Below, one piece after another: positions 1,782 through 12,290 of a stretch of 13,662 nt of DNA. Position 1 is the first letter of the stretch. Each line of letters starts with the position of its first letter. The translations under genes and the position numbers were made by a program. The notes beneath the pieces are model-generated. The model saw only the letters and a program-made list of their open reading frames with translations, had not been told where the DNA came from and searched no databases. Source of the stretch: a virus (Duplodnaviria; Heunggongvirae; Uroviricota; Caudoviricetes). The DNA lies in the IMG/VR virus record IMGVR_UViG_2617271086_000006. One strand, 5' to 3'.

Positions 1782-3035
1782 ATGAAAGTCGAAATGAATA
1801 CTAAACTTTTGGCCTATTTAAACAATGAGTTACATGGAGTGTGGATAGATAGTGAAAATCGTAATATCCACATAATACTTAAATCAAGCCTTCCTATAAT
1901 TAAATCCGTCTGGTCAGGAGCACCTATCCACTTTTTGGTAGGTTTATCTACTAAAAATATACTAGTGATTGGGATGTTGATTGAAGATAATGTCGATAAT
2001 CCATTTTTACTAGCCTATCCACCAAGAGAGGCAGATGAAATTAAAGGGCTGGATTTGTTATTGTCAGGCGCTTATGATGGTATTCTATTATCATTTTTTG
2101 ACTCGCATACAATGCGTGTTATGGACCTGAAAATAAAAGTTTCGGAAAATTTACCGTGTGAATGTTTAAAAAAATTTTGTGCTAATTCATATTCTCTCAA
2201 TTCAGGATTTAGGGAAGGTAATGAAGCAATGGATGAATTCTGCAACAATGCTTTGACTGGTAACGAGAAAATAATTAGTCTGCCACTAAGTGTAATCGAT
2301 AAAAAATCTTACCTAGCAAGTGTTCATGAACCAAACGATACCGTATTAACATATGAATTTAGCGTCAGTGAAAACGGCTCTGAGGGATATGAGCAGGAAG
2401 CTCTTATATACCATGCTTTGCGGCAGGTCTTTTCACCGGAGGAAGTGTTTTTTTCTCCAGATATTATTGAGGGTAATAAAAAAAGAGAACTAGTTGATAT
2501 TCTTATTGTAGAAAATGACTATGTATTATCTATACAGTCTAAAGCATCATCTTTGATTGAAATGGGTTTAAAATCTCATGAAAAGCTTTGTAGCATGTAT
2601 AAGAAAAAAGCATTGCAAGGGATCGATCAGGTTAAAGGCGTTATCCCAATTCTAAATAATGATGTGGTTATTAATTATGACGGGAGGGAATGCTTAATAA
2701 AGCGCAGAAAGGGTATTTATCATTTAGTGATAATCTCAGATCTTGTTTTAGAGAAAGAAGGTGCTGAAAAGATTTATAACGAAATTAGCAACCTTAAAGA
2801 GTCAAAAGGGGCGAAAGTTTTAGTTATGAGCCTTGAAGGTCTTGTAAATTTTATAAGACTATCAAGATTAAATAAAAGAATGTTTTGGGCAATGCTGGAG
2901 ACTAAATACAAGTTCAGCATAAAAAACCGTACAATTTTAATTAGAGATATCGACTCTAGCCAAGAGAATAATCTACCATTACTTGCCACTGATCAATACC
3001 TATCACTTCTTCGAGGTACGGGAAAATTAAAATAA
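1782..3035 (+). CDS. AT-rich cargo (moron) protein of unknown function with a putative PD-(D/E)xK nuclease-like core; candidate defence or abortive-infection protein
   Basis: 417-aa ORF, visibly AT-rich compared with the roughly 50% GC flanks. Residues about 201-254 show helix EGYEQEALIYHALRQ, then strand ELVDILIV (Asp), then strand YVLSIQSK (Q-x-K), i.e. a D-x12-QxK arrangement as in Mrr/NERD-type PD-(D/E)xK folds. Start may be ATG 1782 or the in-frame ATG 1794. No confident family assignment. Confidence 0.7.
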   Translation: MKVEMNTKLLAYLNNELHGVWIDSENRNIHIILKSSLPIIKSVWSGAPIHFLVGLSTKNILVIGMLIEDNVDNPFLLAYPPREADEIKGLDLLLSGAYDGILLSFFDSHTMRVMDLKIKVSENLPCECLKKFCANSYSLNSGFREGNEAMDEFCNNALTGNEKIISLPLSVIDKKSYLASVHEPNDTVLTYEFSVSENGSEGYEQEALIYHALRQVFSPEEVFFSPDIIEGNKKRELVDILIVENDYVLSIQSKASSLIEMGLKSHEKLCSMYKKKALQGIDQVKGVIPILNNDVVINYDGRECLIKRRKGIYHLVIISDLVLEKEGAEKIYNEISNLKESKGAKVLVMSLEGLVNFIRLSRLNKRMFWAMLETKYKFSIKNRTILIRDIDSSQENNLPLLATDQYLSLLRGTGKLK

Positions 3036-3220: not shown

Positions 3221-3262
3221 AAAAAAATAAATAGCTTGTCTGCTCTTGATACAGAGCAGACA
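3221..3262 (-). terminator. Rho-independent terminator candidate ending the leftward early operon
   Basis: Inverted repeat TGTCTGCTC (3237-3245) / GAGCAGACA (3254-3262) with an 8-nt loop. On the minus strand the stem is followed by AGCUAUUUAUUUUUUU (plus-strand A-run 3221-3233). Confidence 0.5.
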
Positions 3263-3320: not shown

Positions 3321-3515
3321 TTACTCAATTACTCCTGCAAACCTGTATATCTTACGTGATGCCCATTTATTTGGGCAGGATTTAATATCAGGATCTGGAA
3401 AATCAGGCCGATATTTCTGACCAGTCCTCCGGTTTACACTGTTCCAGCGAAGCACCGTCGATATTGAAACGCCACAGAATTCGGCGACTTGTTTTGTTGT
3501 CATTAAGTTGTTCAT
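3321..3515 (-). CDS. AlpA/excisionase-like small HTH DNA-binding protein (putative Xis/regulator)
   Basis: Trimmed to the internal Met (MNNLMTTKQVAEFCGVSISTVLRW...), giving 64 aa. Its start codon overlaps the upstream gene's stop as ATGA (3512-3515). HTH-like segment followed by an FPDP motif, as in AlpA/HTH_17 proteins. Last gene of the leftward operon, the usual xis position. Confidence 0.55.
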   Translation of the reverse strand: MNNLMTTKQVAEFCGVSISTVLRWNSVNRRTGQKYRPDFPDPDIKSCPNKWASRKIYRFAGVIE

Positions 3516-3859
3516 TGTTGACCCTCCTGTGGTTGTGCAGTTGAAAGACTCATGCCCGCGCGTTGTTGCCAGACGACCCAGCCGAGAGCCATATCCCACG
3601 CCATGTACTCGTTATCACCGTTTTTTGCTCTCCGACGATCGACTGTTTTACCGAAACGCTTTTCCATAAATAATTCATAGGCTGCGCGTTCATCTGGCTC
3701 AACTTCCAGAGATGCCAGTGCAATCCGTGCCAGTTCTAAATCATCTTCAAGCTCAGCGCGAATCTCAGCGAATGCACTCTGTGTTAAGGCGAACTCAATG
3801 CTCTGCACTTTATTCCGTGCGCGCTCAAGCAGTGCATGGTAGTTAATTTCGGTTGTCAT
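3512..3859 (-). CDS. Hypothetical early-operon protein (115 aa)
   Basis: ORF with ATGA overlaps at both ends (3856-3859 and 3512-3515). GAGG/AGGGG Shine-Dalgarno-like sequence upstream. Acidic, helical-looking sequence with no recognised motif. Confidence 0.7.
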   Translation of the reverse strand: MTTEINYHALLERARNKVQSIEFALTQSAFAEIRAELEDDLELARIALASLEVEPDERAAYELFMEKRFGKTVDRRRAKNGDNEYMAWDMALGWVVWQQRAGMSLSTAQPQEGQQ

Positions 3860-4734
3860 ACCCCTACCTCTTCGAATTTCAATACCAATTGATCACCCCA
3901 GATTTCACATGACTCTGAACACGAGCCGGTATCGAATCGCCTGGCCTGTACCATCGCCTGATACAAATTTCTGTAGTCGCTGTTGGCAGACATTCTGGCA
4001 ATTCCGTCAAGCGTCAGGTGACCACGGTACATAACGTCTTTACCTGTTCTGCGATGACCATCCCTGACGTGTTTGCCTGTAACCAGCTCATTAAAAACTC
4101 GCATCAGACCAGGTTCGTCTTTACATGCAAGCCCCAGCTTTTGCGTTGACTTTTTGATGCAGAAAACACAGTTCCCGAGATGCTCCGGGATTTGCAAATC
4201 AAAAGGTTGTTTTCGCCACCACCGGATAACATCCGACTTATCAAAATCTGACAGTTCGGCAAGATACCGGACGCCCGATTTCGGTTTCAGCCTACGGGGT
4301 TCGTCTGCACGAATACCCAGCCATGTGATGTAATTACCTCGCCCGAAATGGTTATCGCAGTATTTCGTGAAAGGGATGAGTTTTAGCCTGTCAGTACAGA
4401 ACGCGCCGCCGATGTATGGCGTGCCGTACTTTTTAACCATGTCCATAAACGGTTTAAGTACCGGCATTCGCGTCTGAATATCCTTTGGCTCCCATTCTGT
4501 ATAACCATTTGGCTGCCCAAGCTCAGGATTGATATCGACCTGCAACACAGTTAGTGGTATGCCCCAGAACTTCACAACCTCCCGAATAAAGCGGTATGTC
4601 AGCGGATGTTCGCAACCGGTATCCATAAAGATGTAGCAGACGTTATTGCCAGCCTTTCTTTGTTCTTCCATCAGGTGAACAAGATATGCAGATGTTCTCC
4701 CGCCGGAAAAACTAACTACATGAGTTATGCACAT
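3856..4734 (-). CDS. Phosphoadenosine phosphosulfate (PAPS) reductase family protein (PP-loop ATP pyrophosphatase superfamily)
   Basis: 292-aa ORF. N-terminal PP-loop motif VVSFSGGRTS (SGGxxS). GGAG Shine-Dalgarno-like sequence 9 nt upstream. Start overlaps the upstream gene's stop by 10 nt. Confidence 0.85.
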   Translation of the reverse strand: MCITHVVSFSGGRTSAYLVHLMEEQRKAGNNVCYIFMDTGCEHPLTYRFIREVVKFWGIPLTVLQVDINPELGQPNGYTEWEPKDIQTRMPVLKPFMDMVKKYGTPYIGGAFCTDRLKLIPFTKYCDNHFGRGNYITWLGIRADEPRRLKPKSGVRYLAELSDFDKSDVIRWWRKQPFDLQIPEHLGNCVFCIKKSTQKLGLACKDEPGLMRVFNELVTGKHVRDGHRRTGKDVMYRGHLTLDGIARMSANSDYRNLYQAMVQARRFDTGSCSESCEIWGDQLVLKFEEVGV

Positions 4735-5261
4735 TTGCGTAACTCCGATAACTCGTTAAAACGTTCCATAAACATCCCGTAGGCATGTCCTGGTGCCAGT
4801 GGAATCACTTTGAACATCTCTGTTGCCGGGATACCTTCCAGTACAGGCCAGAAAGAGCCATCATCAAGCCCGAGATCGCGGCGTTCGGTTGCCAGCATAA
4901 TGAGATCGGCATATTTCACTGGCGTGCTCATAACAGGAGGTAACCCGTATTTCTCACGGATTACGGCGTCTATTTTTTCTTCCATCTGTTTATAGTCAGG
5001 AAGAAGGCGTTTCAGTGGCGCGGGGATGTCCTGACAATACGCTTCTGTTGCATCATGCATTAACGCTTCAAAAGCAAACTCCTCCGGAACCAGTTTGCTG
5101 CAAAGCACCGCATGTTGGGCGACGCTGTAGAAGTGTGAAAGATGACCGGCAAAGCGACAGATATTTGAAAGGGAAACTGCGATATCGTTAATCACGATGT
5201 CGTCTTTATTTATCCTGTCATAATAAAAATGCTTCCCGGAAAAAGTTTTAATAAATGACAT
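4725..5261 (-). CDS. yfdR: HD-domain phosphohydrolase, YfdR-like
   Basis: Trimmed to the internal Met (MSFIKTFSGKHFYYD...), giving 178 aa, which matches the length I recall for E. coli CPS-53 YfdR. HD signature (H...ALMHDATEAY). GTGGAG Shine-Dalgarno-like sequence 7 nt upstream of ATG 5261. Confidence 0.85.
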   Translation of the reverse strand: MSFIKTFSGKHFYYDRINKDDIVINDIAVSLSNICRFAGHLSHFYSVAQHAVLCSKLVPEEFAFEALMHDATEAYCQDIPAPLKRLLPDYKQMEEKIDAVIREKYGLPPVMSTPVKYADLIMLATERRDLGLDDGSFWPVLEGIPATEMFKVIPLAPGHAYGMFMERFNELSELRKCA

Positions 5262-5355
5262 TTTGTTCTCCACTTTATATGCGCTGCACCGCGCTGAATT
5301 TTGGTTAAAGAAAACCCTCGCCATCAGGCGATTATTGAGTTAATTACGTTTCCAT

Positions 5356-5377
5356 AAATGCCCCCGCAGGGGCATTT
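5356..5377. other. GC-rich hairpin between the YfdQ-like and YfdR-like genes
   Basis: AAATGCCCC (5356-5364) / GGGGCATTT (5369-5377), 9-bp stem with a CGCA loop. No clean U-tract on either strand, so not called a terminator. Confidence 0.4.
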
Positions 5378-5389
5378 GCAGTAATGAAA

Positions 5390-6214
5390 TCAGGCGGTGA
5401 AAGTACCAATAAAGGTTTCTACTTTGCTGTCTTTGAATTTTTCAACAAGCAGATCACGAAATTCGTTAGCCATTTCTTCCTGCACTGCTTCCAGCTGAAT
5501 AATGCGCAGAACCAGTACAGGGCGATCACCAGTGATAATGCTGAGGCGTAATTTAAACGGACGTTCTTTCAGGCCTTCAAACGGAACGCATTTAAACTCA
5601 AATGCTACTGGCATAATGTCTTTGGTTTTCGCTTCGACAGACTCCATCAGAGAGCGTTTGCCGCTGAAGTCATTGTCTTCAAAATCAGCGGTCTGGTTTG
5701 CTTCAATCGTGATTTTACGGACCGCCGCAGCCGCTTTTGTTGCCTGAATGGCGTCACCATTAGCATCAAAGCCCACAAGGTAGTCGGCCCAGTCTTCAAT
5801 CCATTCTGCCAGTGACTTCTGGGAGTTACGCTCGCCGTTAACAGACAACAGGGCAGAGAACGGTGCTGTCTTTTTCAGTTTGAGAGTGGCGGTGTTATCT
5901 GCGTGACCTGGTTCATCAATAGTACCCAGGTTAAGCACACTGACGGCTCGCATATTATCAGCATCGATAAAGCAGCGGGTGCCTTCATCTGCAAGATCTT
6001 TAGAATAACGGGTAAAGTCATCGATGCTGGCAGTGGAAAGCGCACCACGGAAACGGAAGCGATTTAAATTAAATTTTTCCAGATCATGAATGCGGAAATT
6101 CTCAGGCAATGCCACAGCATCGGCACCAATCTTACTGATAATTTCATTAACACCCTGAGCAGAAATAAGGGCATGGATTTGATTAATTGCGGTTGCGTCT
6201 AAGTTCTGAGACAT
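5390..6214 (-). CDS. yfdQ: YfdQ-like protein (DUF2303 family)
   Basis: 274-aa ORF, the same length I recall for CPS-53 YfdQ, in the conserved position between YfdP-like and YfdR-like genes. GAGGA Shine-Dalgarno-like sequence about 7 nt upstream of ATG 6214. Confidence 0.85.
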
Positions 6215-6279
6215 AATAAGTCCTCACTATATAAAGATATTCAGTGATGAGATAAATAATCAGTTTATTAAAAACGATA

Positions 6280-6642
6280 TTAACGACCTGCTGCGCGGAG
6301 TTTTCCGTCAGGTTCACCGGCAAGAGTCAGTAATTGTCCTTGGTCTTCCTGCAGAATAGTCAGGCGACCACCGCGATTGACATACATCGGCGTTTCGGTG
6401 GTGTCTTCTTCGGAAATTTTCCCGCGGTTAGTCGGGCGAACATATGAGAGTTTGTGTTTGATTTTTACACGGTTCTCATCAAACGGTTCGATTTCCAGGT
6501 TGAGCGAGACCTTACCTTTGGTTTTCGTGTTCATCACACCGGAAGCGACTTCACTGAGAACAGCGCCGATTTTGGTTTCAAATACGCCGCCGTCCAGCTC
6601 CCCGATAAATGCCTGCACATCAGTACTGCGTTCGCTAGCCAT
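6280..6642 (-). CDS. YfdP-like small protein (120 aa), first gene of the leftward operon
   Basis: The track ORF (182 aa, TTG-initiated) is trimmed to the internal ATG at 6642 (MASERSTDVQ...), which is preceded by GAGGAG at 8 nt. Resulting length 120 aa. Confidence 0.8.
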   Translation of the reverse strand: MASERSTDVQAFIGELDGGVFETKIGAVLSEVASGVMNTKTKGKVSLNLEIEPFDENRVKIKHKLSYVRPTNRGKISEEDTTETPMYVNRGGRLTILQEDQGQLLTLAGEPDGKLRAAGR

Positions 6643-6779
6643 TTTGCTGCTCCTCATCATATCGACCCCGCAAGGTCGGTTGGTTTCTCCACAAAACAGA
6701 GAAGAACACCAGCGGTGGCAGCCGCCCGGATGGATTGGGTTATGAGCCCGTCGTCCGGTGATGCCCTTCTCTGTTTTGT

Positions 6780-6825
6780 AAAAAGAGCGGTACCAGCCGG
6801 AAGCAAGTGTACAAACTGGTACCGC
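6780..6825 (-). terminator. Stem-loop plus U-tract in the PL leader (tL-like terminator candidate)
   Basis: Perfect 10-bp inverted repeat GCGGTACCAG (6787-6796) / CTGGTACCGC (6816-6825) with a 19-nt loop containing TGTACA. On the minus strand it is followed by UCUUUUUACAAAAC, which also resembles a boxA motif (CGCTCTTTTTA). Confidence 0.4.
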
Positions 6826-7320
6826 CAAAGCAGTGGCTGTTGTGGTGACCGGTGCTGATCTCCGGCTTGCGGTTATTTCAGACTCTCACGGGCGTTTAAT
6901 TGCCCCGCCGAACAGCTCTTTTCCGCAATAGCTGCAATGTCTTTCGCGCATCAGCCTGCGCATTCACCACAACGCTGAGAGCATTGCCGGTGTCCGAATC
7001 GAACGGACCTTTTCCCTGCCCAACCCTCCCATCTGAATGGGACTGTCTGGAATTGAACCAGCACTTATGCCTTGCTCGTCAATGCTCTCATCGTTGCGTC
7101 CTGGTCTCTTCCCAAGCGTCAAACCGAATCGCCACGCTGGTTAGGCGTCTTATCAGCATCCTCATTGACTTGCACATTCCGGCTACCTGGTTTGTTTGCC
7201 CGAGCAAGGAGTGGATTATCCCCTTTAACGTCCCCAGACCGCTAACGACGCATGTGCCATACGCCGTGTTACAACCAAATTTTGTTTGAATCTTGCCTGC
7301 CTCATGTTTCTTTTGGATAC

Positions 7321-7348
7321 ATTATGTATCTCATAGGTACATTGTCAA
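7321..7348 (-). promoter_or_regulatory. Putative PL promoter with embedded operator OL
   Basis: Minus-strand -35 TTGACA (plus 7343-7348), 16-nt spacer, -10 CATAAT (plus 7321-7326). The spacer and -10 are overlapped by an operator-like site TGTATC-N5-GGTACA (7325-7341). Confidence 0.5.
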
Positions 7349-7352
7349 GTAT

Positions 7353-7375
7353 AAAAAAACCTGCCGAAGCAGGTT
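7353..7375 (-). terminator. Rho-independent terminator downstream of the cI-like gene
   Basis: Minus strand reads AACCUGC-UUCG-GCAGGUU followed by U-run (plus-strand A-run 7353-7359), 13 nt after the cI stop at 7388-7390. Confidence 0.6.
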
Positions 7376-7387
7376 CATAAATATTGA

Positions 7388-8062
7388 TTAGGCCTTTATT
7401 GTGTATCTTCTTGGTTTTCCCGAGAAAATCACTGTACCAATTATAGAGCAATTACCGTTAATCTTAATGTAAGGCTCAGGCCAGTTTGGGTTTAATGCTT
7501 TGAGATAACGCTGTGTTCCATCTTCTATCAACCGCTTGAAGGTGGTTTCGCCTGAATCGTGCATCAATGCAATAACGTCGTCACCGTGGCAGGCAGGGAC
7601 TTCAGGATCAACAAAAATCATGTCTCCCGGGCGGTACTCATCAATCATTGAATCACCAATCACCCGCAAGATATAAGTCATTTCGCCACAGGGTACAGGG
7701 CAGGGATAAGTTTCTGCTGTGCTCAAATCAACCTCAGAATAGCCAACTTCTTTCCATGCTCCGGCCTGTACCCATGATATGACAGGGACTAACGTTATTT
7801 GTTTGTTAGTGATTGAAACATCAGGTTTTTTTGTGATGTTCGTGGTCTGGTGTTCTTGATCAAGCCATCCGACAGGCAGGTCGAAACATTTTTCGATGTG
7901 CCTTGCCATGCTGTCACCGATATTTTTAGTAGCACCATCTCCCATAAACCTGCTGGTCTGGGTTGGCTCGCGATCAATCATGGTGGCAAAGGAAGAATTC
8001 CCGCCAACACCATCTCTCAGTTTTCTGGCGTTAGACCGCCGGATGTCATGGACTGTTTTCAT
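7388..8062 (-). CDS. cI: CI-type prophage repressor (N-terminal HTH, C-terminal S24 LexA-like autopeptidase)
   Basis: 224-aa ORF. Ala-Gly autocleavage site (VQAGAW), Ser nucleophile motif GDSM and Lys in TFKRL. Divergent from the cro-like gene. No Shine-Dalgarno sequence close to the ATG, so the mRNA may be leaderless as for lambda PRM. Confidence 0.9.
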   Translation of the reverse strand: MKTVHDIRRSNARKLRDGVGGNSSFATMIDREPTQTSRFMGDGATKNIGDSMARHIEKCFDLPVGWLDQEHQTTNITKKPDVSITNKQITLVPVISWVQAGAWKEVGYSEVDLSTAETYPCPVPCGEMTYILRVIGDSMIDEYRPGDMIFVDPEVPACHGDDVIALMHDSGETTFKRLIEDGTQRYLKALNPNWPEPYIKINGNCSIIGTVIFSGKPRRYTIKA

Positions 8063-8078
8063 AACGAAATTAAAACCT

Positions 8079-8097
8079 TTGTACCGATAGGGTACAA
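8079..8097. promoter_or_regulatory. Operator-like palindrome OR-a (TTGTACC-gatag-GGTACAA)
   Basis: Perfect 7-bp inverted repeat with 5-bp spacer, 17 nt upstream of the cI start, in the cI/cro intergenic region. Confidence 0.5.
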
Positions 8098-8948: not shown

Positions 8949-9544
8949 ACAGTTTAACGGCAAATAACCGTTTGTCGCAACAGCTGGTGGTCAGCGTCGC
9001 TGAACACCTGTTGTTACGGCATGAATGCAGATTACCAAATCTCCTGGCTGTAAGTAACCACAGAGAACTTTACCTGACTGTGGGGGGCGAGTTGTGCAGG
9101 AACTTAACCGCTGGTTTCGTGACGGAAGAGGACTTTATGTTCATGTTATTCGTTGGGAGCCAGAAACACAGCGCGTTATCTATCTTCGCAAAGACTACCC
9201 GCATGAGTGCTTTAGTCCTTTGTGGAAATTCAAGCGTGATTTTGTTGAGTGTGAAGGACCACCAGCACATTGATTCTGCCATTCCGGGACGTTACACTGT
9301 TCAGGCACCTTATAAAGCGGGTGCCGGGATTGGCGTCCTGGAATTGATCAAGGCGATATATGACGCGCCAGCGTCTTTTTTATCGTCCGCATTTGCTCAC
9401 ATCAAAGTTATGGTGGGCTGGGCGGGGGCATCGAAAGATGCGCCGGTTTCCTTGATCACCGGTTACGCCAACCCCGTTCAGTTCACCACCAGCGAAATTG
9501 GCGTTTCCGGTGGTGGAAGTGGAACAAACCAGCCCATGAACTGA
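8945..9544 (+). CDS. Hypothetical protein (199 aa)
   Basis: Long ORF coupled to the upstream gene by an ATGA overlap (8945-8948). No recognised motif. A shorter protein-like reading (about 58 aa from GTG 9094) exists in another frame. Confidence 0.5.
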   Translation: MNSLTANNRLSQQLVVSVAEHLLLRHECRLPNLLAVSNHRELYLTVGGELCRNLTAGFVTEEDFMFMLFVGSQKHSALSIFAKTTRMSALVLCGNSSVILLSVKDHQHIDSAIPGRYTVQAPYKAGAGIGVLELIKAIYDAPASFLSSAFAHIKVMVGWAGASKDAPVSLITGYANPVQFTTSEIGVSGGGSGTNQPMN

Positions 9545-9816: not shown

Positions 9817-10045
9817 TCCGTTGCTCCTCAACATTTACCGTTTATTTCAGCGTAAAAAAATATCAACACCCACAGTTGGGCAGTGGTACACCACGCCAGC
9901 AGGGCATGTTCTACGTGTCAGCCTGGTTGACCGTGAATGTCAGAAGGTGATTTGTGAACCGCTGGGCCGTAATTACCGCGTCAGTATGCCGCTTATAGCC
10001 TTTCGCTCCGGAAAAAACATGAAGCATCTCGGAGGTGCAGCATGA
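9809..10045 (+). CDS. Hypothetical small protein (78 aa)
   Basis: ATG 9809 preceded by GGAGGG at 7 nt. ATGA overlap with the downstream initiator gene (10042-10045). Confidence 0.6.
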   Translation: MLNPLLLNIYRLFQRKKISTPTVGQWYTTPAGHVLRVSLVDRECQKVICEPLGRNYRVSMPLIAFRSGKNMKHLGGAA

Positions 10046-10860
10046 GTATGGAGCTGATGGTTAAAGCGATGAAAATTCGAGTGGGTAATCCATTGCGAAA
10101 ACTGGTTCTGATCAAGCTGGCTGATAATGCCAGCGATCAGGGTGAGTGCTGGCCCAGCTACCAGCATATTGCTGACCAGTGCGAGATTAGCAAACGTTCT
10201 GTGATGAATCATATTGCGGCCCTTTGTGAGTCCGGGCTGGTAAAAAAAGTCACCCGGAAAGGTGAAAAAGGTAACTCAAGTAATATCTATCTCCTTCATC
10301 TGGATGGTGCAGGAGATTCACTAGGGGGTAGTGCAAATAATTCACTATCTGGTGCAGCAAATTCACCAGGTAGTGCAGGAGTTGCACTAGGGGGTAGTGC
10401 AGGAGATTCACCCAGAACCAGTCACTCTTTTGAACCAGTCAAAGAACCAGTCAATGAACCAATAGCTGTTGGTGCATCTGCTGATGAGTCTGTGCGAGTT
10501 CGTTCAAACCGACCGGAATACTCTCCGGAGTTTGAGCAGGCATGGCTGGCATATCCCAAACGTGCTGGTGGCAATTCAAAATCTGCAGCCTTCAAAGCCT
10601 GGAAAGCCCGTTTGAATGAGGGGGTAAACCCCGAAACCATGCTGGAAGGTGTGAAACGCTATGCGGGCTGGGTATCTGCGATGGGTAACAGCGGCACACA
10701 ATTTGTGAAACAGGCTGTCACGTTCTTTGGTCCGGATCGTCATTTCGAAGAATCCTGGGAAGTTCCTGCGGTATCTGCAGCCAGACGTGAGGACCCGTAC
10801 TTCAAAGCCAGTTACGACAACGTGGACTACAGCCAGATCCCGGCAGGATTCAGGGGGTGA
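10042..10860 (+). CDS. Replication initiator, O-like (N-terminal winged-helix DNA-binding domain, iteron-encoded linker, C-terminal domain)
   Basis: 272-aa ORF with GGAGG 6 nt upstream. N-terminal HTH_36-like winged helix (LRKLVLIKLADNASDQGECWPSYQHIADQCEISKRSVMNHIAALCESGLVKK). The central Gly/Ser/Ala-rich linker is encoded by tandem DNA repeats, as for ori-lambda inside gene O. Confidence 0.8.
   Translation: MSMELMVKAMKIRVGNPLRKLVLIKLADNASDQGECWPSYQHIADQCEISKRSVMNHIAALCESGLVKKVTRKGEKGNSSNIYLLHLDGAGDSLGGSANNSLSGAANSPGSAGVALGGSAGDSPRTSHSFEPVKEPVNEPIAVGASADESVRVRSNRPEYSPEFEQAWLAYPKRAGGNSKSAAFKAWKARLNEGVNPETMLEGVKRYAGWVSAMGNSGTQFVKQAVTFFGPDRHFEESWEVPAVSAARREDPYFKASYDNVDYSQIPAGFRG
10303..10413. 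repeat. Iteron array (putative origin of replication) inside the O-like gene
   Basis: Four direct repeats of about 19 bp with consensus TTCAC-N8/9-GTGCA: 10317-10335, 10341-10359, 10362-10380 and 10383-10401, at a period of 21-24 bp. Confidence 0.6.
10415..10461. repeat. Tandem GAACCAGTCA decamer repeats next to the iterons
   Basis: GAACCAGTCA at 10415-10424, 10432-10441 and 10444-10453, plus a partial GAACCAA at 10456-10461. They encode EPVKEPVNEP in the initiator linker. Confidence 0.5.
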
Positions 10861-10862
10861 TC

Positions 10863-11357
10863 ATGAGTCTTTTGAATGAAGTTCAGAAATTCATTGAAGC
10901 CCATCCGGGGTGTACTTCCGGAGACATTGCGGATGCTTTTGCAGGTTACTCACGGCAGCGCGTTCTGCAGTCAGCAAGCAAGTTACGTCAGAGTGGGCGT
11001 GTGGCTCACCGTTGTGAAGGGGATACACGCAGACATTTTCCGCGCCAGATAAAGATATCGCCGGAGGCGGAACGGCAACCAGTTCGTGAAACCAGACCTG
11101 TGCGCAATTTCTATGTCGGCACTAACGACCCGCGGGAGATTTTATGCCTGACCCGCCAGGCTGAAGAACTGGAGTCCAGGGGCTTATACCGTCGTGCTGC
11201 AACGGTGTGGATGGCGGCATTCCGTGAAAGCCACTCCCAGCCAGAACGAAACAATTTTCTGGCGCGTCGTGAGCAGTGTTTACGAAAAGCAGCAAGCGCG
11301 CTGTATCGGGTGATGAGTGGTATCTGTCAGGGAATTACGTGGGGGCTTAATGAGTAA
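10863..11357 (+). CDS. Winged-helix / PerC-like regulatory protein (tentative)
   Basis: Trimmed from the GTG start at 10857 to ATG 10863 (MSLLNEVQKF...), 164 aa. The C-terminal segment AEELESRGLYRRAATVWMAAF resembles the PerC/Pch-family motif. Assignment is tentative. Confidence 0.55.
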   Translation: MSLLNEVQKFIEAHPGCTSGDIADAFAGYSRQRVLQSASKLRQSGRVAHRCEGDTRRHFPRQIKISPEAERQPVRETRPVRNFYVGTNDPREILCLTRQAEELESRGLYRRAATVWMAAFRESHSQPERNNFLARREQCLRKAASALYRVMSGICQGITWGLNE

Positions 11358-11967
11358 TAAATATTGCCAGGAGCTGGTGGAACTGCATCAGTGGCGCACG
11401 CCGGACAACATTTTCTGGGGAATTAACACCCTGTTTGGTCCGTTTGTTCTGGATCTGTTCACTGACGGTGATAACGCCAAATGCGCTGCGTATTACACGG
11501 CGGAAGACAACGCGCTGGCGCATGACTGGTCAGAACGCCTTGCGGAGCTTAAAGGTGCTGCCTTTGGAAATCCCCCATACAGCCGCGCCAGTCAGCATGA
11601 GGGGCAATACATCACCGGCATGCGTTACATCATGAAGCATGCCAGTGCCATGCGTGATAAGGGCGGGCGCTATGTTTTCCTGATCAAAGCTGCCACCAGC
11701 GAAGTGTGGTGGCCGGAAGATGCAGATCATATTGCTTTTATTCGCGGGCGTATTGGTTTTGAACTGCCTGCCTGGTTTATCCCGAAGGATGAGAAGCAGG
11801 TGCCGACAGGCGCTTTCTTCGCTGGTGCTATTGCTGTTTTCGACAAGACCTGGAAGGGACCGGCAATCAGCTATATCGGGCGCGATGAACTTGAGGCATG
11901 TGGTGAGGCGTTTCTGGCGCAGGTTCGCCTGCAGGCGGAAAAGCTGGTCAGGGAGATGGCGGCATGA
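11350..11967 (+). CDS. Phage Dam-like DNA N6-adenine methyltransferase
   Basis: Trimmed to ATG 11350 (MSNKYCQELVELHQW...), 205 aa. Catalytic motif GNPPYS. Overlaps the upstream gene by 8 nt and the downstream gene by ATGA. Confidence 0.85.
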   Translation: MSNKYCQELVELHQWRTPDNIFWGINTLFGPFVLDLFTDGDNAKCAAYYTAEDNALAHDWSERLAELKGAAFGNPPYSRASQHEGQYITGMRYIMKHASAMRDKGGRYVFLIKAATSEVWWPEDADHIAFIRGRIGFELPAWFIPKDEKQVPTGAFFAGAIAVFDKTWKGPAISYIGRDELEACGEAFLAQVRLQAEKLVREMAA

Positions 11968-12290
11968 CGACGTTAACTCAATGCCAGCAGCAGGTGCTGG
12001 ATATGCTGATTTCTTATCAGAAAGAGCGTGGCTTCCCGCCAACCAATCAGGAGGTGGCAACCATGCTGGGATACCGTTCGGTGAATGCAGCGGTGGAGCA
12101 TCTTCGCGCACTGGAGAAAAAAGGCGTCATCACGATAAAGCGTGGTGTGGCCCGGGGGATCACGCTTCATACCGCGGTGAAGGACGACGACAGCGAGGCG
12201 GTCGGGATTATCCGCTCACTGCTTGCCGGTGAGGAAAACGCAAGGCTGCGTGCAACTCACTGGTTACATGAGAGAGGCCTGAAAGTATGA
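11964..12290 (+). CDS. LexA N-terminal DNA-binding-domain-like protein lacking the S24 peptidase domain
   Basis: 108-aa ORF. Aligns by eye with E. coli LexA residues 1-70 (QQQVLDMLISYQKERGFPPTNQEVATMLGYRSVNAAVEHLRALEKKGVITI against [51 protein letters not shown]). ATGA overlaps at both ends. Confidence 0.8.
   Translation: MTTLTQCQQQVLDMLISYQKERGFPPTNQEVATMLGYRSVNAAVEHLRALEKKGVITIKRGVARGITLHTAVKDDDSEAVGIIRSLLAGEENARLRATHWLHERGLKV

Follow-up and report, generated by a model that had tools for sequence, protein, structure and literature searches.

Two described systems come closest to the locus reported here. Cryptic prophage CPS-53 (KpLE1) of Escherichia coli K-12 carries yfdP-yfdQ-yfdR-yfdS-yfdT, and yfdQRST was isolated as a multicopy suppressor of hda-185 (Noguchi & Katayama 2016; PMC4776307). 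In that work, multicopy yfdQRT or yfdQRS inhibited initiation at oriC, with YfdS or YfdT required besides YfdQ and YfdR, and purified YfdR bound DnaA (domain I) in dependence on DnaA Phe46. Clusters of the yfdP/Q/R type have been described as a common early-left module of lambdoid phages (PMC12315714). The other system is ninC of phage lambda, which lies between ninB and ninD in the rightward nin region. The literature that we found on NinC lists it only as non-essential or as a member of the phosphoadenosine phosphosulfate (PAPS) reductase family and assigns it no function, while virome studies treat such "PAPS reductase" genes as sulfur auxiliary metabolic genes (AMGs). Here we describe a locus that combines both systems, at positions 3321-6642 of a stretch of 13,662 nucleotides from a virus of the Caudoviricetes (IMG/VR record IMGVR_UViG_2617271086_000006; the whole stretch is hereafter the window). 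It contains six leftward (-) genes in the order yfdP-yfdQ-yfdR-ninC-yfdT-like-xis, as determined from open reading frames (ORFs) and direct reading.

The yfdP-xis operon and its relatives

We consider it probable that this region is an early-left (PL) operon assembled as a mosaic of known modules, in which NinC is a nucleic-acid enzyme. The six genes are real annotated genes and not chance ORFs. The DNA from 3321 to 6900 (3.58 kb) is 100% identical to many annotated complete RefSeq E. coli chromosomes, and the feature, a widespread annotated mosaic of known modules, is already known. A sequence-only reading of the same DNA had proposed an operon with YfdP, YfdQ and YfdR homologues here, and its coordinates and content were correct (98, 99 and 97% identity to the CPS-53 proteins). 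In leftward order, the genes are:

6280-6642, minus strand: yfdP, 120 aa (98% identity to K-12 YfdP; phrog_204)
5390-6214, minus strand: yfdQ, 274 aa, DUF2303 (99% identity to K-12 YfdQ; PF10065, E=2e-92)
4725-5261, minus strand: yfdR, 178 aa, HD-domain 5'-deoxynucleotidase (97% identity to K-12 YfdR)
3856-4734, minus strand: ninC orthologue, 292 aa, annotated as "PAPS reductase" (PP-loop ATP-pyrophosphatase fold, five conserved cysteines)
3512-3859, minus strand: yfdT-like gene, 115 aa (73% identity to K-12 YfdT in the C-terminal 79 aa; phrog_660)
3321-3515, minus strand: xis, 64 aa, helix-turn-helix (HTH) excisionase (phrog_1553, E=8e-35; HTH_17/MerR-type N-terminus)

The longest ORF of yfdR extends to 5324, and the gene is called at 4725-5261. 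For xis, which is unannotated in the RefSeq twin locus of avian pathogenic E. coli (APEC) E18005, the mechanical ORF reaches 3599 from a GTG; phrog_1553 matches its residues 29-92, which corresponds to the ATG at 3515. Homology of this Xis to TorI was considered and rejected, as the protein comparison gave no similarity.

Gene order and strand logic are alike in the window and in CPS-53. However, CPS-53 has the unrelated yfdS where the window has ninC, the window excisionase is not TorI-like, and the window operon, unlike that of CPS-53, adjoins int in a complete-looking prophage with its own repressor and PL. The yfdP/yfdQ/yfdR-type cluster is also shared with the early-left operons of ST64B, LLS, phiNP, ArgO145, SfV, Ss-VASD and Shiga toxin (Stx) 2a phages. 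In those phages the operon often also includes N, kil, recombinase and ea genes, none of which lies between PL and yfdP in the window. At the level of DNA, yfdR was present in 2974 of 5426 complete E. coli genomes.

YfdR retains an intact HD motif (H50, H69-D70 and D119, from sequence reading and alignment to K-12 YfdR) and matches the YfbR-like Pfam family and PDB 2gz4. A distant YfdQ homologue (~38% identity, E=1e-44) is present in PDB entry 9o7m ("YfdQ Protein"), for which our literature search turned up no accompanying paper. Because this entry has 36 chains, a large assembly is likely for YfdQ as well, by analogy. The AlphaFold2 model of YfdQ (pLDDT 78) gave no significant Foldseek match in the PDB to April 2026, a release without 9o7m. 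YfdP had no match in Pfam or among PDB sequences, the YfdT-like protein had none among PDB sequences, and YfdP, YfdQ, YfdR and the YfdT-like protein all lacked a match in the PADLOC defence library.

Three of the five gene junctions overlap, as the earlier reading had noticed: yfdR/ninC by 10 nt at 4725-4734 (CGC AAA TGT GCA TAA; other frame ATG TGC ATA), ninC/yfdT-like by ATGA at 3856-3859 and yfdT-like/xis by ATGA at 3512-3515. The remaining gaps measure 65 nt (yfdP-yfdQ) and 128 nt (yfdQ-yfdR), the latter with two small hairpins, one with a T-run behind it (5318-5331). This spacer is spanned by a match to the small RNA (sRNA) STnc100 at 5218-5398 (-) that stays below the Rfam threshold (23 bits, E=0.15). 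The 10-nt overlap corresponds to 11512-11521 of the compared K-12 locus, and the start ATG of ninC here, like that of yfdS in K-12, is embedded in the last yfdR codons (AAATGYGCATRA); the embedded-start sequence is AAATGCGCATGA in K-12 and AAATGTGCATAA in the window. Homology to lambda ninC starts exactly at this ATG. The mosaic joint falls exactly at the gene boundary because the start ATG of the following gene lies inside the yfdR 3' end. Since the unrelated yfdS uses the same embedded ATG in K-12, the overlap is no evidence of yfdR-NinC coupling; sequence comparison traces it to the 3' end of yfdR and to recombination at the boundary. Overlaps are common in this prophage; in the RefSeq twin, the rightward operon has four of 4 nt, plus 1-, 8- and 38-nt ones. 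The overlapping junctions are generic phage gene packing with no sign of a dedicated multi-protein machine, and the earlier argument that they imply obligate co-expression is not supported on either count.

The following signals and the repressor gene flank the operon:

7388-8062, minus strand: cI-like S24 (LexA-family) repressor (PF00717, E=2e-26; RefSeq "LexA family protein")
7357-7376: terminator of the repressor gene, directly before the PL-like promoter
7321-7348, minus strand: putative PL-like sigma-70 promoter, TTGACA-16-CATAAT (11/12 consensus positions)
7324-7342: operator-like imperfect palindrome in the PL spacer, related to the perfect palindrome TTGTACCGATAGGGTACAA
6643-7312, minus strand: ORF-free leader of ~670 nt between PL and yfdP, conserved in lambdoid phages
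3237-3262, minus strand: terminator-like hairpin (10-bp stem) with a T-rich tail, closing the operon

The perfect palindrome TTGTACCGATAGGGTACAA occupies positions 8079-8097 in the intergenic region that separates the repressor gene from the cro-like gene. The palindrome has 3 matches in the window, compared with an expectation of 0.45; statistically this is weak, although the positions are sensible. The locus resembles a lambdoid PL operon in its leftward promoter by the repressor, its related operator and its xis end near int, a likeness at the level of consensus. With no N-type antiterminator and no Red/Gam genes found between PL and xis (ORFs, Pfam and PHROG), the operon fits the "no Rec module" class of lambdoid phages (PMC12315714).

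The leader is 96-98% identical in mEp460, cdtI, Ayreon, Stx2a_1447 and 1720a-02, where it is unannotated or annotated with hypothetical genes only. Compared with shuffled controls, its RNA folds somewhat more stably (z = -2.86), and inspection by eye shows a hairpin with a trailing U-run at ~6780-6825; Rfam gave no match at E<=1. The leader could be a regulatory RNA (an attenuator or put-like element). Among other candidates, tRNA genes (T-arm-like strings seen by eye at ~7000-7080) were rejected since ARAGORN finds none, and an N-like ORF was rejected since only short unconvincing ORFs are present.

From this arrangement, we suggest that the cI-like S24 repressor would silence the PL-like promoter in the lysogen. 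Upon induction, a leftward transcript would run through the leader, yfdP, yfdQ, yfdR, ninC, the yfdT-like gene and xis, and stop at 3237-3262. Judging from the near-identical K-12 proteins, YfdR would be an HD-domain deoxynucleoside monophosphate phosphatase that, with YfdQ and YfdT, would bind DnaA domain I around Phe46 and compete with DiaA and DnaB; this action would dampen oriC initiation after induction.

The sequence-only reading had stated that YfdR-like proteins bind DnaA and inhibit initiation together with their neighbours, which is accurate (PMC4776307), and had called the operon a likely host-takeover module. In its phage context this is a reasonable hypothesis by analogy, given the near-identical YfdQ and YfdR and the YfdT homologue. 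Nonetheless, a host-takeover role is not an established function, because the DnaA effect was seen in multicopy only, deletion of the K-12 genes left initiation unaffected, and the authors concede that the over-expression effect is possibly an artefact (PMC4776307). These points weigh against a DnaA-directed role of the operon as a whole.

Two observations on the replication region bear on the same host proteins. The protein encoded at 10042-10860 (+) has HTH_36 and weak DnaD_N matches, not domains of the lambda O/P type. The window shows no P-like helicase loader, a point relevant to how the phage might rely on host DnaA and DnaB or compete with them.

NinC and its possible link to DNA adenine methylation

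The 292-aa protein shares 79% identity over 285 of its 292 aa with phage lambda NinC (nin290, lambdap64) and matches the lambda NinC family in PHROG (phrog_424 / phrog_33262, E ~1e-90). By sequence it is the orthologue of lambda NinC, which RefSeq likewise labels "phosphoadenosine phosphosulfate reductase". The two proteins are of equal length and have all conserved motifs in common, with two extra N-terminal residues in the window protein that derive from the yfdR-embedded start. The lambda gene lies in the rightward nin region, whereas the window gene follows yfdR in a leftward operon; among 80 viral loci with NinC relatives both positions occur, so a nin-region location does not define the family.

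Of the 5426 complete E. coli genomes, 431 contained the window ninC allele and 283 the yfdR-ninC junction. Shigella phage Ss-VASD and Stx2a phages have a 93%-identical NinC directly after yfdP/Q/R-type genes, as in the window. The gene had been called an unusual early-gene cargo, a description that is not supported: lambda has an orthologue, and the gene recurs at the same position in Stx and Shigella phages as well as in hundreds of genomes of E. coli. Outside this group, a homologue from Gilliamella (host genus of a honey-bee phage study) shares 53% identity with the window NinC. Copies of ninC ~90% identical to that of the window also occur at 72 places on ~100 kb E. coli plasmids, presumably phage-plasmids (e.g., NZ_CP021729.1 55414-56281), where they adjoin ead/Ea22-like genes and not yfdR. 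The idea that YfdS is a degraded NinC was rejected, as the proteins show no similarity.

That the protein belongs to the PP-loop/PAPS-reductase superfamily, as had been read from the sequence, is supported by a Pfam match to PF01507 and by fold comparison, and homology searches of each protein did not move it to an unrelated family. The PF01507 match (E=1e-8) is restricted to residues 5-71 and to profile positions 2-65 of 175, and the NCBIfam CysH equivalog NF002537 yields 20.2 bits, far below its cut-off of 154. With its Rossmann-like fold and N-terminal SGGxx[ST] PP-loop, the window NinC belongs to the PP-loop ATP pyrophosphatase (adenine nucleotide alpha-hydrolase, AANH) superfamily, and its PP-loop core scores equally against sulfonucleotide reductases and against tRNA thiolases/TilS. 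Among 28 close homologues the PP-loop S-x-S-G-G-R-x-S, DTG, G-x-R-x-D-E-x-x-R and six cysteines are invariant. Across 107 cluster representatives reaching down to ~31% identity, C113, C189, C192, C272 and C276 are conserved in at least 97%, and the SGGxx[ST] loop is found in 99. Neither the window NinC nor any of 270 homologues has the catalytic CysH motif ECG[LIV]H. Compared with CysH PAPS/APS (adenosine phosphosulfate) reductases, NinC keeps the ATP-type SGGxxS loop, lacks ECGLH and differs in its C-terminal half.

In the PADLOC library the best match of NinC is SspD, which acts in single-strand DNA phosphorothioation (E=3e-15, residues 5-152), followed by weak matches to BrxP and DndC. The N-terminal PP-loop core of these cysteine-rich, DNA-acting proteins of DNA phosphorothioation resembles that of NinC. 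However, the alignment extends over just half of the SspD profile, and NinC is a single phage gene: no cysteine desulfurase, SspB/C, DndD/E or BREX core was detected in the window, where NinC alone matches PADLOC.

The link to methyltransferases is the most informative evidence on NinC, and suggests, from gene fusion and neighbourhood, a DNA-directed activity. Fusion proteins combine NinC homologues with PF05869 Dam, placed N- or C-terminally, or with a methyltransferase of the PF02086 D12 class. Within the 80 viral loci, NinC is fused to a methyltransferase in 9, directly preceded by a Dam gene in 5 and within 6 kb of one in a further 3; this co-occurrence (17/80) is a descriptive count only. 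The window has its own Dam gene (11350-11967), whose product belongs to PF05869, the family that is fused to NinC homologues elsewhere.

Taken as sequence evidence, NinC looks like a nucleic-acid-directed PP-loop enzyme and not an enzyme of sulfate assimilation. The "PAPS reductase" label is probably misleading, because the PP-loop is kept, ECGLH is absent, five cysteines are conserved and fusions to DNA adenine methyltransferases recur. Most likely NinC would be a PP-loop enzyme that adenylates at the expense of ATP and whose cysteines ligate a metal or Fe-S centre, and its target would probably be a nucleic acid, most likely DNA, functionally near Dam-type adenine methylation. We tentatively raise the possibility that the family, lambda NinC included, forms a distinct Fe-S/Cys-cluster class of PP-loop enzymes that adenylate and then modify DNA together with Dam-type methyltransferases, and thereby protect phage DNA or disturb host defence; sulfur insertion and adenine hypermodification are candidate chemistries. 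The earlier suggestion that the protein could modify nucleic acids or counter defence is thus plausible in its nucleic-acid part, for which the SspD match and the methyltransferase fusions and adjacency speak.

Several observations weigh against a DNA-modifying NinC and call for caution. In 63 of the 80 loci there is no methyltransferase within 6 kb. The cysteine layout of NinC (one Cys, a CxxC and a C-terminal Cys on a low-confidence tail) resembles that of Fe-S APS reductase, so by sequence a reductase-like chemistry may still apply. Moreover, to our knowledge no NinC-dependent modification has been reported in decades of work on lambda DNA.

Alternative explanations

If NinC were a genuine PAPS/APS reductase, it would be an AMG that boosts host sulfur assimilation in infection or lysogeny, as its label in PHROG and in the literature implies. 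The layout of its cysteines, with the last one on a flexible tail, parallels Fe-S APS reductases. We nevertheless find this explanation very unlikely: the PF01507 match is confined to the N-terminal residues, the equivalog score is far below its cut-off, ECGLH is missing throughout the homologues with the ATP-type loop retained, and the methyltransferase fusions are recurrent. In addition, the lambda gene sits among DNA-transaction genes (ninB, ninG), and ninC, as part of a repressed lytic operon, would not be expressed in the lysogen. NinC could also act on something other than DNA, such as host tRNA (by thiolation or lysidine-like chemistry), a nucleotide second messenger or a protein, and so retune translation or blunt defence. 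A PP-loop combined with a Cys cluster is typical of Fe-S tRNA thiolases, and as a matter of general knowledge no DNA modification is known in lambda. On the other hand, the fusion and adjacency to Dam/D12 methyltransferases point to DNA, and the closest relatives in the defence library belong to DNA phosphorothioation (SspD, BrxP, DndC), which leaves a non-DNA target unlikely in our judgement.

Other explanations concern the operon rather than NinC by itself. The products of yfdR, ninC, yfdT-like and xis might form an obligate complex in which NinC replaces YfdS as the accessory of YfdR against DnaA. The overlapping junctions, the occupation of the yfdS slot by ninC and the K-12 requirement for YfdS or YfdT alongside YfdQ and YfdR would agree with such a complex. 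We hold it to be highly improbable, since NinC is unrelated to YfdS and is equally frequent in the nin region by ninB/ninD without yfdR, overlaps are generic in this prophage, and the embedded ATG belongs to yfdR and serves any following gene; in pull-downs, moreover, neither YfdR nor DnaA stably bound YfdQ, YfdS or YfdT (PMC4776307). Alternatively, yfdP-yfdQ-yfdR might be a cryptic recombination or repair module that replaces Red/Erf/RecT, with YfdQ as an oligomeric DNA-binding protein. This would be in line with an operon that has no exo, bet, gam, erf or recT, with the large assembly suggested by the 36-chain entry, and with a yfdQ deletion that reportedly raises sensitivity to methyl methanesulfonate and H2O2, according to a citation in PMC4776307. 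However, the cluster coexists with complete Rec modules, and a recombinase role was judged unlikely (PMC12315714). In Ss-VASD, genes for a recombinase and an endonuclease lie upstream of this cluster, and the YfdQ model matches no known fold of single-strand annealing proteins. We therefore give a recombination module very little credence. An early-left operon that is a mosaic of known modules, with NinC as a nucleic-acid enzyme, remains our preferred explanation.

Prophage context and biological meaning

The window covers the left arm of an intact-looking E. coli prophage of the lambdoid type. In APEC E18005 the twin prophage lies directly downstream of yjjG (RefSeq annotation). Its gene order is tyrosine integrase, a 417-aa hypothetical protein, the operon genes, the LexA-family (S24) repressor, cro/cII-like genes and a replication gene, after which come PerC, Dam, RusA, KilA-N and an antiterminator (RefSeq; Pfam). 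The genes of the window that were mentioned above and lie outside the operon are:

386-1609: int, tyrosine integrase
11350-11967, plus strand: phage Dam-type N6-adenine DNA methyltransferase, in the rightward operon (PF05869, E=3e-43)

Between int and xis, the 417-aa ORF at 1782-3035 (+) has a GC content of 32-37% and occupies a typical moron position. Its only family match is phrog_30399 (unknown function); it had no match in Pfam, NCBIfam or PADLOC, and among PDB sequences only a short one to malate dehydrogenase (E~0.007). Between Dam and RusA, a gene at 11964-12290 (+) encodes a 108-aa protein that consists of the LexA DNA-binding domain alone (PF01726, E=3e-19), without the S24 protease. 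The region 9292-9493 (+) contains two Rfam matches above the gathering score, C4 antisense RNA at 9406-9493 (82 bits) and the Hfq-binding sRNA isrK at 9305-9381 (64 bits), as well as a weak c4-a1b1 target match at 9292-9344 (+); it is an antisense control element of the P1/P7 immI type in the rightward early region, near an "ash family" gene.

Hundreds of E. coli genomes and several phages already carry annotated copies of this DNA, and the locus is of little genomic importance in itself. It does give YfdQ-YfdR-YfdT, whose DnaA activity has been seen only from K-12 plasmids, a natural phage context with PL, repressor and xis, and this context makes throttling of oriC on induction directly testable in an inducible lysogen. 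Lambda NinC is among the last uncharacterised genes of lambda, and the lead on it is the one worth keeping from this locus, if a modest one. Should NinC indeed represent a class of DNA-modifying enzymes, many of the sulfur-assimilation AMG counts in viromics would be mis-assignments.

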